Assembly (NCBI GenBank): GCA_964016885.1
Contig: OZ024746.1
Location: 79,174,001 to 79,238,000, forward strand
From: Eledone cirrhosa
Lineage: Eukaryota
Direction: 5' to 3'
DNA length: 64,000 nucleotides
In this document: positions 5,941-62,620 of the stretch, in pieces
Position numbering within the stretch: position 1 is the first letter of the stretch
How the letters are laid out: the number at the start of each line of letters is the position of its first letter
Position numbers and translations under genes: made by a program
Notes under the pieces: generated by a model
The model's database searches: none
What the model was told of the DNA's origin: nothing
The model's input: only the letters and a program-made list of their open reading frames with translations

Positions 5941-6179
5941 TACTTGATCACAAGAATATCTATTTTGTTAATATTTTGAATTAATATTAATAACTCTGGA
6001 AAACCTTTCTGTTGAGTGCTTCCAATCTATTGTAAAACTCATTCTTTGATGTATTCATTGAACCTTGTTTAACTTTTAAATATATATATATATATATATA
6101 TATATATATATATATACAAGGAAAACTTCAACCATTAAGGTATGTTCCTTGGCTATGTCAAAATTTATAAAACACTTTG

Positions 6180-6241
6180 TATTTTATCTGGTGAAAGCGT
6201 AGCAATGATTTTGGTACCCTTGAAATATATATAATAGAATA
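6180..6241 (+). ncRNA. Degenerate hammerhead (family F; core CTGGTGA)
   Basis: Homologous to 24249-24313 and 62751-62816, including the downstream sequence. A6 is mutated. Confidence 0.55.
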
Positions 6242-6545
6242 AATATGGTTTTATAATTATAGTTTCCATTTATTTAATATTATTGTATATATATATATAT
6301 ATATATATATATATATATATATATATATATATATATATATATATACATATATATATATATACCTACACATACACTTATATATATGAATGAGATATTACTT
6401 ATTACTAGTTAGCACTAAAGAACTTAGAATTCCACACTTATTTATATAAGAACAATAGAAAGATGACTATATATATATATATGTAGAGAGAGAGAGAGAG
6501 AGAGAGATAAATATACACGGGTGTGTATGATTGTGTAGAGAAGAT

Positions 6546-6783
6546 TATATTAATAAGAGGAATTCCAACTTTGTCTGATTTACTCGTTTTATTTACAATC
6601 CTTTAAAATTTATAATGGTATTATAATGAAATAGTATGGTAGAATATTAAATTCTAAGTGTTAATTAACACTTAGAATTTAATATTCTATCATACTATTT
6701 CATTATAATACCATTATAAATTTTAAAGGATTGTAAATAAAACGAGTAAATCAGACAAAGTTGGAATTCCTCTTATTAATATA
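6546..6783. mobile_element. Near-perfect ~238-bp palindrome: fold-back of PLE-like 3' end (family C)
   Basis: Arms of ~119 bp with no spacer (centre gtgttaa|ttaacac). The arm matches 63807-63924. Confidence 0.85.
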
Positions 6784-6879
6784 TATATATATATATATAT
6801 ATATATATATATATATATATATATATATATATATATATATATATATATATATATATACATATATATACATATATATATA

Positions 6880-7038
6880 GGAAAAAGTATGACCCCGACG
6901 GCAGAGCTCAAGTCGTCGAAACGGCTTGAGCTCTGCCGTCAGGGTCATACTTTCTCCTATTACCCACTCTACTACCCCAAGTATTGAGTACTCTGGTGCG
7001 TTATGGTCCATCTGGTTCCTTACCACAACTCCTTCGTT
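6880..7038 (+). mobile_element. Family D fold-back element with hammerhead 3' half (GAAACGGC..GCCGTC) in (TA)n
   Basis: Inverted arm plus unique tail. Further copies at 27687-27766, 29216-29384, 37369-37534(-), 38052-38244, 49890-49954, 50628-50757 and 52142-52330(-). Confidence 0.8.
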
Positions 7039-58190: not shown

Positions 58191-59214
58191 ATTATTCTCT
58201 TCACATGGTTTAAGGTCTTAACCGGGTATATTCTATCAATTCATATGATCACAGGTAGAAGATATTGGCTATTCCAAGAAGTGCTGACGTCTGTAAAGCA
58301 CTGTTAGGTGTTATATTTATTTAGCTCGTTGATTTATGTTGTCAATTTATTTGGAAATATATCGGTCAGTGTGTTACAAGTGTGACAGTCAACAGCAATG
58401 GAAGTGACATTGATTCGTGGCTTGTTGTCACATTTGTAATACAACATGGCCAGTTTGTGGATGCATAATTCAAGAAAAATATGGTGCAAGACTGAAGGTG
58501 AGGCTGGCAACAATATGATCATATAAGTCCTAATGAATCCTGAATGTGCAGGACTATTGCGTGCCATGCTCCATCGTAAATACAGCAACAGAAGCAATGA
58601 GAATGACAATGCAGGGCAGAAGACCCAGCAGTTAATGTCACGGCAGTAAAAGTCCCCTGAGGGAAAACCGAACTAGTAATGCAGAAAAAGAGTGAGAGAG
58701 GAATGAGCAGTAACGGAACCAGTAAAGACAAGAGGAGGCCCCGCAGGCTAAAGGAGTACGAATGAAGCGAAATATAAAGAGGGAATGAAGTGGTGAGGCA
58801 GTGACTAGGTGCTAGTTGTTCTTGTAGTTGGTTCTGGTATTTATATCAGTGGTGGTGACCATTATGGTGGTAGTGGTTATGTCTAATAGTGGTGGTGACC
58901 ATTATGGTGGTAGTGGTTATCACTAATTGTGGTGGTGATGGTTATAGTGGTGGTGGTAATGGTAATGATGCTGTTAGTGACGGTTATAGTGGTGATGGTT
59001 ATGGTGGTGTTAGTAATGGCTATAGTGGTGGTGATGGTTATGGTGGTGGGGGTAATGGTAGTGGTGGTGGTGAGGGTTATAGTGGTGGTGATCGGTATGG
59101 TGGTGGGGGTAATGGTAGTGGTGGTGGTGAGGGTTATAGTGGTGGTGATGGGTATGGTGTTGGTGGTAATGGTAGTGATGGTGGTGGGGGTTATAGTGTT
59201 GGTAGTAATAGCAT

Positions 59215-60418
59215 TAGTGGTGGTGATGGTTCTGGTGGTGCTGGTGGTAATAGCTATAGTGGTGGTGGGGGTTCTGGTGGTGGTGGTAATAGCTATAGTG
59301 GTGGTGATGGTTGTAGTGGTGGTGGTAATAGCTATAGTGGTGGTGATGGTTGTAGTGGTGGTGGTAATAGCTATAATAGTGGTGATGGTTGTAGTGGTGG
59401 TGGTAATAGGTATAATGGTGGTGATGGTTCTGGTGGTGGTGGTAATAGCTATAGTGGTGGTGATGGTTGTAGTGGTGGTGGTAATAGCTATAGTGGTGGT
59501 GATGGTTGTAGTGGTGGTGGTAATAGCTATAGTGGTGGTGATGGTTGTAGTGGTGGTGGTAATAGCTATAATGGTGGTGATGGTTGTAGTGGTGGTGGTA
59601 ATAGCTATAATGGTGGTGATGGTTGTAGTGGTGGTGGTAATAGCTATAGTGGTGGTGATGGTTCTGGTGGTGGTGGTAATAGCTATAATGGTGGTGATGG
59701 TGGTAATAGCTATAATGGTGGTGATGGTTGTAGTGGTGGTGGTAATAGCTATAGTGGTGGTGATGGTTCTAGTGGTGGTGGTAATAGCTATAGTGGTGGT
59801 GATGGTTGTAGTGGTGGTGGTAATAGCTATAGTGGTGGTGGGGGTTGTAGTGGTGGTGGTAATAGCTATAGTGGTGGTGATGGTTGTAGTGGTGGTGGTA
59901 ATAGCTATAGTGGTGGTGTTGGTTGTAGTGGTGGTGGTAATAGCTATAGTGGTGGTGATGGTTGTAGTGGTGGTGGTAATAGCTATAGTGGTGGTGATGG
60001 TTGTAGTGGTGGTGGTAATAGCTATAGTGGTGGTGATGGTTGTAGTGGTGGTGGTAATAGCTATAGTGGTGGTGATGGTTGTAGTGGTGGTGGTAATAGC
60101 TATAGTGGTGGTGATGGTTGTAGTGGTGGTAGTAATAGCTATAGTGGTGGTGATGGTTGTAGTGGTGGTAGTAATAGCTATAGTGGTGGTGATGGTTGTA
60201 GTGGTGGTGGTAATAGCTATAGTGGTGGTGATGGTTGTAGTGGTGGTAGTAATAGCTATAGTGGTGGTGATGGTTGTAGTGGTGGTGGTAATAGCTATAG
60301 TGGTGGTGATGGTTGTAGTGGTGGTGGTAATAGCTATAGTGGTGGTGATGGTTGTAGTGGTGGTGGTAATAGCTATAGTGGTGGTGATGGTTGTAGTGGT
60401 GGTGGTAATAGCTATAGT
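59215..60418. repeat. 39-bp minisatellite (~30 copies) within NNT low-complexity tract 58845-61090
   Basis: Unit ggtggtgatggttgtagtggtggtggtaatagctatagt. Confidence 0.95.
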
Positions 60419-60485
60419 TGTGTTATATAGCTGTTGTTTGTGATGATGATTGAAGTGAAGATGGCGGTGGTAATGGTTGGTATTG

Positions 60486-60587
60486 ATAATTGTTTCTACT
60501 TTAGGCACAAAGCCAGCAATTATCCAGTGCATTACTGGTACTTTATTTTATCGACCTCGTAAGGATGAAAGGCAAAGTCAACCTCGA
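60486..60587 (-). mobile_element. SINE 3' fragment
   Basis: Same family. Confidence 0.8.
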
Positions 60588-62620
60588 TGGTTGTGCTTTT
60601 CGTGTTAATAGAAATATGGTTGATGGTAGTGGCAGTTGATGAGTTAGTAGTGACTGCTATAGATATGATGGTGATGGACGTGGTGGTGGTTGTAAGTGTA
60701 GTGGTAATTTCCTGGTTCTAAGGGCGCGTAGGTAGTAGTGGCAGTAATGGTGTGTAGTGGAAGTGGTAAGATGGTGTAGATGGTGTAGATGGTATAGATC
60801 CGGGATGCGGCAGTAGAGGTGGTGGTTGGAGTAATGATAACGATGGTGGTGGTAAGAATGGTAGTGATGGTGATAGTGCTGATGATGTGGATGGTGGTTG
60901 TGGTAGACGTGGTGGTGGCGGTGGGAATAGTGATTGCTGTAGTAGTAGTAATAGTAGTAGTAGTAGTAGTAGTAGTAGTAGTAGTAGTAGTAGTAGTAGT
61001 AGTAGTAGAGGTGTTGATAGTGTAGAGCCTACACCACCACCACCACCACCACTGCTACTGCAGCACTGTCGATGGTGGTGTTGGTGGCAGTTTTTATTGC
61101 ACTTTAGCTGAACTCGACTATAGCGTGTTTCGTGAGCTTTTTTACAGTAATGAATTACACTTGTTCGGGACTCATTTGAATGATAGATCGCCCAATACAC
61201 CCCCCCCCCACACACACATATCAAGACATATACATATACGGAAATTCACGCACGCCTACACACATCTATATATAGATAGAGTATATATATGTATCCATGT
61301 GCAAATATATATATATATATATATATATATATATATATATATATATACATGTATAAAAGTGAATATATGTGAATATATGTATATATAAATGTATATATAT
61401 GTATATATATGTATAGATATATATATGTATATATATACATATATATATGTATATATATATATATATATATATATATATATATATATATTTATGTTTGCAT
61501 TTATGTATATATATTTATGTATATATATATATGTTTATATAATATATATATATATATATATATATATATATATATATATATATATATATATATATATATA
61601 TATATATATATATATATATGTATATATATATATATGTTTATATAATATATATATATATATATGTGTGTATATATACAGATGCCCATACTTAAGTTAGAAT
61701 ATATAGATCGTTACTATTTCAGTCTACCAGAATTAAGGTTTCACGTTGCGTATCAACCATGAAATAAAGGGGCAAGACACTTATATATTCACACACACAC
61801 ACATACACACACACACACACACACACACACACACACACACACACACACACAGAAACACACACATATACTCAGACACCCAGACACACTTACAAATTCACAC
61901 ATATACTCACACACACAAACATACATGCAAAACGCGCAAAAAAACAAACACCCACACAAACACGCGCACACATAAACCCACATCCAGACACATACACGTA
62001 CACACACATTCATGTGGACACACACAGGCACAATCTCAGGCATACGTTCACACACACAAACACAGATATACAAACACATATACATATATAAACACAGTCA
62101 TGCACATACTTGCGCACCCTTCCAGACGCACTAACGCATATACATACACATACCCTAACGCATACGCACACGCACAAACGCATACATATGTTCGTAACCT
62201 CACGAACATCAACGAATGCGCATACACAATTGGACGCCCACATGCACAAATGTACATGTAAATTGTTCACACACACATAAATGTACACAGAACTGCACAC
62301 TCTCAAGCACATACACGTATGCACTTATACACATAGAAATGCACGCATACATGCATAGATAAATAGCTAGCTACCAACATACATACATATACATACACAT
62401 ACATACACGCATATATATACACACACATACAAACACACATACATACATATATATATATATATATATATATATATATATATATATATATATGCAAAAGTTT
62501 TATTTAAAATTGTTGGGTTACAACGAGTAAATATTTTATAACTGATATAAAGCACTCAACAAGTTTTGGAGTAGATATACGATATTAAACAAATGGAAAC
62601 TATATTTATAAAACCATATT

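Follow-up and report, generated by a model that had tools for sequence, protein, structure and literature searches.

The hairpin motif and its carriers

The window, a stretch of 64,000 nt from the genome of Eledone cirrhosa (GenBank assembly GCA_964016885.1, contig OZ024746.1, positions 79,174,001 to 79,238,000 of the forward strand), contains many copies of a hairpin of about 25 nt near runs of (TA)n, carried by several families of insertions related to Penelope-like elements (PLEs). In full-length elements the hairpin is doubled, hairpin 1 being followed by hairpin 2. The relevant features are given below, 'strict' marking copies found by a scan for RCTC, at least three inner pairs, TT and GAGY; ORF is open reading frame and RT reverse transcriptase.

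5427..5540, minus strand: inverted arm of the family B insertion, hammerhead-bearing, ending 5 nt before hairpin 1
5882..5930, plus strand: predicted hammerhead core of family B
5993..6017, plus strand: hairpin 1 of family B (strict)
6966..6989, plus strand: hairpin 1 of family D (strict); palindromic arms at 6877-6960 end 5 nt before it
7140..7165, minus strand: hairpin 1 of family E (strict)
7395..7475, minus strand: hairpin 1 of family A, with a long inner loop (strict)
7545..7695, minus strand: family A hammerhead (predicted, type I), read from the sequence, its stem II lengthened by an insert of ~120 nt
11222..12919, minus strand: 5'-truncated RT and GIY-YIG ORF of family A, with Hydra-clade motifs; the full ORF of 813 amino acids is found elsewhere in the genome
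12934..13627, plus strand: inverted arm of the family A insertion, ending 4 nt before hairpin 1 (site 1) and abutting (TA)n
17642..17669, minus strand: additional copy, imperfect in that its first inner pair is U-U; (TA)n follows after ~63 nt
22243..22267, minus strand: additional motif copy (strict), 57 nt before (TA)n; no ORF-linked family here
27122..27154, minus strand: hairpin 1 of family H (strict)
29311..29334, plus strand: hairpin 1, family D copy (strict)
36948..36966, plus strand: hairpin 1 of family F, CU-bulge variant
37418..37441, minus strand: hairpin 1, family D copy (strict)
38172..38195, plus strand: hairpin 1, family D copy (strict)
38506..38524, minus strand: hairpin 1 of family F (strict)
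50685..50708, plus strand: hairpin 1, family D copy (strict)
51937..51955, minus strand: hairpin 1 of family F (strict)
54172..54191, minus strand: hairpin 1 of family G (strict), without (TA)n close downstream; palindromic arms at 54198-54331 end 6 nt before it
62554..62572, minus strand: hairpin 1 of family C (strict); palindromic arms at 62575-62862 end 2 nt before it

All ten stretches listed in a preliminary description of this DNA were recovered where it had placed them, and four further copies of family D, for which it gave no coordinates, are located here; the CU-bulge copy, which it assigned to the minus strand, reads on the plus strand. Fourteen distinct strict copies are present in the window, against a mean of 0.5 and a maximum of 3 in 100 local dinucleotide shuffles, and the motif is thus real and the original observation confirmed, its frequency being well above that of shuffled AT-rich sequence. 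Three other hammerhead-bearing arms, at 6177-6286, 24249-24355 and 25110-25237, stop just before hairpin 1 and hence lack the motif; they have no traced partner arm.

The nature of the bulge was studied in 79 stretches, totalling 790 kb, taken at round coordinates on large contigs of the source genome (G000, 3.0 Gb). The UU form occurs 56 times, and (TA)n lies 35-80 nt downstream in 32 of these cases. Each of the remaining 15 two-base 3' bulges gives between none and two (TA)n-linked cases, with the exceptions of UA (10 of 17) and UC (12 of 20), both of which are part of the same motif. The description of the bulge as strictly UU is therefore right as to the commonest form and too narrow as to the rule, which is U followed by H. 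Across Hydra-clade loci the motif takes the form RCUC-helix-UH-GAGY-RCU, with an inner length of 8 to about 100 nt. No Rfam family reached its gathering score among the best 150 of 488 matches, these being simple-repeat hits, and no relatives were found in the viral contigs searched. The suggestion that the motif had not been described before stands so far as the literature searched is concerned, subscription papers and Repbase notes lying outside the scope of that search.

The window ORF is a truncated form of the 813-residue RT-GIY-YIG protein, of which many near-identical copies exist in the genome; a Pfam search with the 5'-truncated window ORF returned no match. The full-length family A protein is encoded by a single ORF with the endonuclease C-terminal to the RT, which sets it apart from the Naiad and Chlamys elements with their N-terminal endonuclease. 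The RWR and DKT motifs are present in protein P0001, as are a CxCX5C linker and CxxC and CxH around a conserved E and N, a CCHH arrangement being absent by eye. Among 71 aligned relatives, DK[TS] is found in every one and RW[KR] in 52, C565, C567 and C573 are conserved at 93-99%, and CxxC and CxH are retained in 68 and 67 respectively. The predicted structure of a relative's protein is confident (predicted local distance difference test score, pLDDT, 93), with TERT as its closest match. The predicted hammerhead in the pseudo-long terminal repeat (pLTR) and the insertion at (TA)n are likewise as in the Hydra clade, the typical length of which, under 3 kb, is exceeded by the units of family A (~6.6 kb) and family D (~3.5 kb). 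The 3' region of family A (~4 kb, 8174-11221) is rich in (TA)/(CA) microsatellite and degenerate repeats, which are kept between copies. A Hydra-type ORF was matched in 44 of 48 inspected run-on loci of families B, C, D and F, giving, with family A, five families linked to such ORFs. Judged by these ORF motifs, the carriers in these five families, and probably in the others, are the ends of Hydra-clade PLEs, a single PLE clade. The assertion that they share no other obvious similarity was accordingly mistaken, and the possibility that they are unrelated to PLEs is answered by the same five families.

Conservation of the hairpin was followed through metagenomes, in which 87 related loci were collected, forming 68 families at 80% ORF identity. 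The Hydra-clade loci L208-L216 are in contigs filed as bacterial metagenome-assembled genomes, and are probably animal host DNA binned with these. The 5' regions, 18 kb in all, contain 53 sense matches to the motif and 10 antisense ones; the 3' regions, 35 kb in all, contain 30 and 7 respectively. Covariation was counted in 70 instances anchored only on RCTC and GAGYNCT, with no pairing filter, and compared with 5000 shuffles; this anchored counting and an equal-length seed were used in preference to a MAFFT alignment of 58 hairpins, which was set aside because its 5' strand was mis-gapped. The first inner pair is formed in 67 of the 70 (C-G in 43, U-A in 22; shuffle mean 51, maximum 58), the second in 50 of 70 (shuffle maximum 43) and the third in 41 of 52 (shuffle maximum 32). 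All three positions thus pair above every shuffle, although the shuffles ignore kinship among families, and the claim of a covarying upper helix is upheld. The bulge in these instances is UU in 42, UC in 16, UA in 11 and UG in one.

The covariance model proposed as a check was built from 10 metagenome hairpins and gave 136 matches, and it also found the window copies. The three inner pairs covary in the fitted alignment, 97.9% being paired against 82.9% in shuffled sequence, a comparison that likewise ignores kinship. In position, 105 of the matches are sense and near ORF ends, 19 lie inside tandem spans (18 of these forming pairs before a second ATG) and 12 are elsewhere. The first basal pair is mostly G-C in the metagenomes, mostly A-U in the source genome and U-A in L183, L192 and L196. 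An extra short RCTC..GAGT hairpin lies between the hammerhead and hairpin 1 in the 5' regions of L132, L135, L139 and L145, and is possibly a third, degenerate copy.

A scan of the genome and of PLE consensi was also proposed earlier. Enrichment near (TA)n is evident in the 790 kb, and three of six Hydra consensi in the available part of the supplement to PMC8557442 contain the full motif by eye, one of them twice, at its 5' end; a variant is found in one, a partial form in another and none in the sixth. A search of the same material with six 9-mers of the 3' strand, in which line breaks can hide matches, gave eight: four at Hydra ends, all full hairpins, and four in the Naiad and Chlamys files, none a hairpin by eye.

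Insertion ends and the twin arrangement

The order in full-length 5' regions is hammerhead, hairpin 1, hairpin 2 and ATG, with start-to-start spacing of the hairpins mostly 55-83 nt and 15-65 nt between the end of hairpin 2 and the ATG. In family A arrays, sequence past the position of the (TA)n junction reaches hairpin 2, which has a loop of ~100 nt, after 5 nt, 29 nt before the ATG. The direct arm of the family A insertion in the window (the 7395..7475 unit) ends 49 nt beyond hairpin 1, 5 nt before hairpin 2. Among 29 metagenome loci with an upstream hammerhead-like core, 22 have at least two hairpins (the second copy imperfect in two cases), two have one and five have none; by eye, three of these five contain two variant copies and the remaining two are spurious hammerhead cores. 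A second RCTC was predicted immediately after the junction in other families, and pattern matches were obtained for family D (435, overlapping matches being counted twice), family B (33) and family C (153), with none in reversed controls. In the inspected loci of these three families it is a full hairpin, and the prediction is borne out for them.

The (TA)n junction thus lies just before a hairpin 2 that is not copied, and the visible hairpin 1 marks the end of the inverted arm. The distance of 43-68 nt between motif and (TA)n, noted in the preliminary description, is indeed seen in 13 of the 14 strict window copies, the exception being 54172-54191, but it is not a ruler; it is the spacing to the uncopied hairpin 2. 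The view of the tail hairpin as a signal positioned at that distance upstream of the junction is hence not supported, since insertion ends fall 2-6 nt 5' of a hairpin. Measurement from hairpin 1 was considered as a ruler and rejected: the spacing varies from 43 to 97 nt, against offsets of 2-6 nt before the hairpins.

Mapping of five family references on the genome sample reveals two end peaks per family, a pile at 220-224 of family A being low-complexity noise. In 13 extended loci of family A, all 15 site-1 ends lie at -4; of the 15 site-2 ends, 13 lie at -5 and the other two at -7. Family D has 35 (TA)n-flanked ends, of which nine are located at -5 relative to hairpin 1 and 19 at -3 relative to hairpin 2. 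When 79 hairpins were examined, 34 inverted arms could be traced; 24 end between -8 and +1 from hairpin 1 and none of the 34 runs through it. Seventeen of 28 scorable ends at metagenome loci are 0-6 nt before a hairpin. The hairpins are preceded by A/U-rich sequence, in which T and A alternate weakly between -6 and -3.

The two sites are also paired. All 11 resolved long insertions in the extended family A loci join a site-1 end to a site-2 end, and of 37 short head-to-head pairs, 30 are site-1/site-2 and none is same-site, the remaining seven having one unclassified end. The arms of the long insertions are independent in length, and their inner ends differ in 11 of 12 joints. These joints consist of overlaps of 1-3 nt or gaps of 2-35 nt, and joining of the complementary DNAs (cDNAs) through long palindromic homology was for this reason rejected for long insertions. 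The long arms read through the hammerhead site and both hairpin sites of the preceding unit, which makes an uncut or circular template likely. Among the short insertions, many form near-perfect palindromes.

The same hairpin rule is obeyed by the insertion ends of three families of ORF-less tandem units, of 612 nt, 538 nt and about 629 nt, which keep both hairpins. Units of this kind, seen at L090:2029-2904, L059:2115-2748 and L085:3726-4578, are candidates for non-autonomous, retrozyme-like elements of the Hydra clade. The 612-nt unit is a relative of family E, 74-78% identical, and was found in the sample where an exact-pattern search for a run-on copy of family E gave no matches; the 538-nt unit resembles family H by eye, without a BLAST match.

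Other repeats of the window include a near-perfect palindrome of 297 nt, equal at its ends and flanked by (TA)n runs, at 26368-26664, with related pieces at 14940-15131, and broken RT fragments of a retrotransposon without long terminal repeats (non-LTR), LINE-like (long interspersed nuclear element) by eye, on the minus strand at 31934-33672. An abundant repeat of ~190 nt, often in inverted pairs, is present at 18707-19123, 27460-27989, 28653-28843, 30869-31319, 57421-57804 and 60486-60587.

A proposed priming model and its alternatives

The pattern of conservation and ends suggests that each copy of the twin 5' hairpin of Hydra-clade PLEs, with insertion ends 2-6 nt upstream, probably serves as a binding site for the RT-endonuclease and fixes an internal start of reverse transcription. 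The earlier proposal of a cis-acting signal that positions priming is supported to this extent, the motif behaving as a covarying, single-strand-type signal of PLEs. Since an arm contains no copy of the hairpin that marks its end, the action of the hairpin is likely exerted on the template, 3' of the start. Whether priming is moreover a programmed twin event, with an RT dimer that would hold a pair of TAR-like hairpins on a single RNA, each just 3' of the start belonging to it, and copy from both cut strands of (TA)n, is evenly balanced. In the likely mechanism the element protein, presumably a dimer, would bind both hairpins of one transcript, contact probably being made through the U-H bulge and the G-C and A-U pairs that follow, matching the TAR arginine pocket. 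An arginine pair before the WYNPP motif, R484/R486, which is 97% conserved as R or K among aligned relatives, is a candidate for this contact. The endonuclease would nick both strands of the self-complementary target, each 3' end would anneal to the short U/A-rich sequence preceding one of the hairpins, and extension would proceed from site 1 for one end and from site 2 for the other, the template being an uncleaved tandem or a circle. Joining of the two antisense cDNAs end to end would give (TA)n, inverted arm, direct arm and (TA)n, and the stretch between site 1 and site 2 (the 'tail') would be present in only one of the arms. Given that in vitro the Poseidon PAc PLE extends both target strands, from two internal starts that bound the tail (Frangieh et al. 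2024, in the available portion of PMC11167929), the simplest account is that a single particle holds both hairpins and primes from both strands.

Several observations weigh against this interpretation. Family F shows only an altered 3' half of hairpin 2, so that the second-hairpin prediction failed there, and its ends are precise despite the lack of a canonical hairpin 2; L190 has one hairpin only. At metagenome loci, 11 of the 28 scorable ends are more than 6 nt from a hairpin, mostly alignments to (TA)n runs or to other families, with some real misses. The survey of short pairs used wide site windows and left 61 arms without a partner found, besides the seven half-classified pairs. The four basal pairs hardly vary, and barely covary, within the metagenome set. 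The preference for the sense strand is weak: G-U exceeds A-C by 21 to 13 (p 0.23, mis-anchored rows included) and, at the inner pairs after five rows are dropped, by 10 to 5, and in-context pairing above 0.5 is predicted for 29 of 44 hairpins in sense and 24 of 44 in antisense. The rare variants L212 and L159 swap the U-A pair that a TAR-like triple requires. Finally, a window family with palindromic ends at 6496-6783 and 63796-63929, which we take from its motifs to be Neptune-like, has a hammerhead, a (TA)n target and a tail of its own of ~45 nt, and its ORF fragment contains a CxxC linker and a CCHH-type endonuclease. The motif was not found near the 22 ends of this family examined, and it therefore cannot explain all PLE tails.

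Other explanations fare less well. It is unlikely that the hairpins are read on a DNA intermediate, with the RT starting further 3' and the endonuclease cutting back the cDNA or duplex to within a few bases of each hairpin. The antisense strand is compatible with the wobble and folding tests, and the tail has been ascribed to endonuclease resolution of an intermediate (Craig et al., in the portion of PMC8557442 available); however, a PLE in vitro starts internally regardless of 3' additions, according to the corresponding portion of PMC11167929, and both insertion ends abut the target (TA)n with U/A-rich microhomology. The variable inner length of the hairpin and its covariation, furthermore, need a folded single strand and not a duplex site. 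Fixed offsets would also fit a cut, and small ribozymes that cut at their own 5' edge exist. It nevertheless seems quite improbable that RNA 3' ends are generated by the hairpins, through self-cleavage or a nuclease guided just upstream, and that the RT starts from these as at any template end: separate cut RNAs give no reason for the strict pairing of site 1 with site 2, long arms cross both sites of the preceding unit, few unpaired bases are conserved, and no such family is among the best 150 of the 488 Rfam matches.

A role as promoter elements, or in translating the ORF on RNA that is uncapped and hammerhead-cut, with the coincidence of ends being secondary, would suit the closeness of hairpin 2 to the ATG and the finding that ribozyme cleavage can drive cap-independent translation (PMC13725137, in the part available). 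As both hairpins are kept in the ORF-less units, and base-exact ends at both copies would go unexplained, this is regarded as very unlikely. The abundance of short palindromes, together with the self-priming proposed for PLE palindromes in the accessible text of PMC3846280, might suggest that site 1 is a stop, a single cDNA from site 2 folding back and copying itself until blocked by hairpin 1. Yet in five of the 11 resolved long insertions the site-1 arm exceeds the other in length and carries the complete ORF, and arm inner ends are unrelated in all but one of the 12 joints. Fold-back is thus contradicted for long insertions and may account for some short palindromes; as a general explanation it is extremely improbable. 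That the motif is a neutral relic of common ancestry, or chance, is scarcely credible: among related families shared sequence is by itself weak evidence, but the motif is conserved and covaries across families less than 80% identical in their ORFs with unalignable flanks, and chance would supply 0.5 of the 14 window copies.

These results bear on how PLE RTs choose an RNA and a start site, and on the origin of the inversion seen in insertions and of their one-sided, long-noted tail, which the twin hairpins would likely explain in Hydra-clade elements. Where the sole in vitro study of a PLE could, in the available part of its account (PMC11167929), only bracket the binding region, a motif of ~25 nt with exact start offsets and a strict pairing rule is offered here that is directly testable. 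It can serve to mark non-autonomous Hydra-clade elements, and it is relevant to the definition of templates by telomerase-like RTs. Twin priming, if true, would mean that an RNA recognition element had for the first time been defined in the sister group of telomerase RTs, and that a portable signal of ~100 nt could license the insertion of any RNA, as is suggested by the ORF-less units.

Comparison with known systems

The closest system is the Hydra clade of PLEs with a C-terminal endonuclease (PMC8557442, in the portion available), which has the same RT and C-terminal GIY-YIG, RW[KR], DKT, CxCX5C, CxxC and CxH motifs, pLTR hammerhead and (TA)n target, and in whose published consensi the hairpin is present. 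That portion of the account describes no hairpin, twin copies or end rule, and gives a typical length of under 3 kb, against 6.6 kb for the family A unit. The Poseidon PAc element (PMC11167929, likewise in part) also requires RNA 3' of the start and has a predicted dimer; it differs in belonging to another clade, in starting within a stem-loop that is AC-rich and lies inside the ORF and in having no defined binding motif in the available text, and the stretch printed in Fig. S1 of that paper does not contain the Hydra-clade hairpin. Non-LTR retrozymes are, like the ORF-less units, short tandem units without an ORF tied to PLEs, and no mobilisation signal is named for them in the accessible parts of PMC7229834 and bioRxiv 10.64898/2026.07.22.740005; the units of 538-629 nt found here carry twin hairpins, a clear hammerhead not being established in them.

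In the TAR (trans-activation response) RNA of human immunodeficiency virus 1 (HIV-1), a bulged U forms a triple with an A-U pair and arginines contact two Gs (Pham et al. 2018, in the available part of PMC6189040). The arginine sandwich motif of TAR and 7SK described there has in common with the PLE hairpin a paired purine, a bulged U and linker, a G, an A-U pair and a G-C pair; the latter is permuted, with the loop on the other side, and has a 2-nt bulge and an extra conserved 3' RCU. Of the 70 anchored rows, all have U as the first bulge base and 68 have A or G before it, the G and A being part of the anchor. TAR contains the pairs G26-C39 and C29-G36. The conserved core hence appears to match the arginine pocket of TAR, a resemblance from which no common ancestry is claimed.

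Stringent LINE and SINE (short interspersed nuclear element) 3' stem-loops, and those of R2, recruit the RT, and in L1 twin priming two primers produce an inversion, though sporadically. The LINE, SINE and R2 signals are located on the 5' side of the start and become part of the copy. By contrast, the putative signal of Hydra-clade PLEs lies 3' of the start, is doubled and has a fixed pairing.

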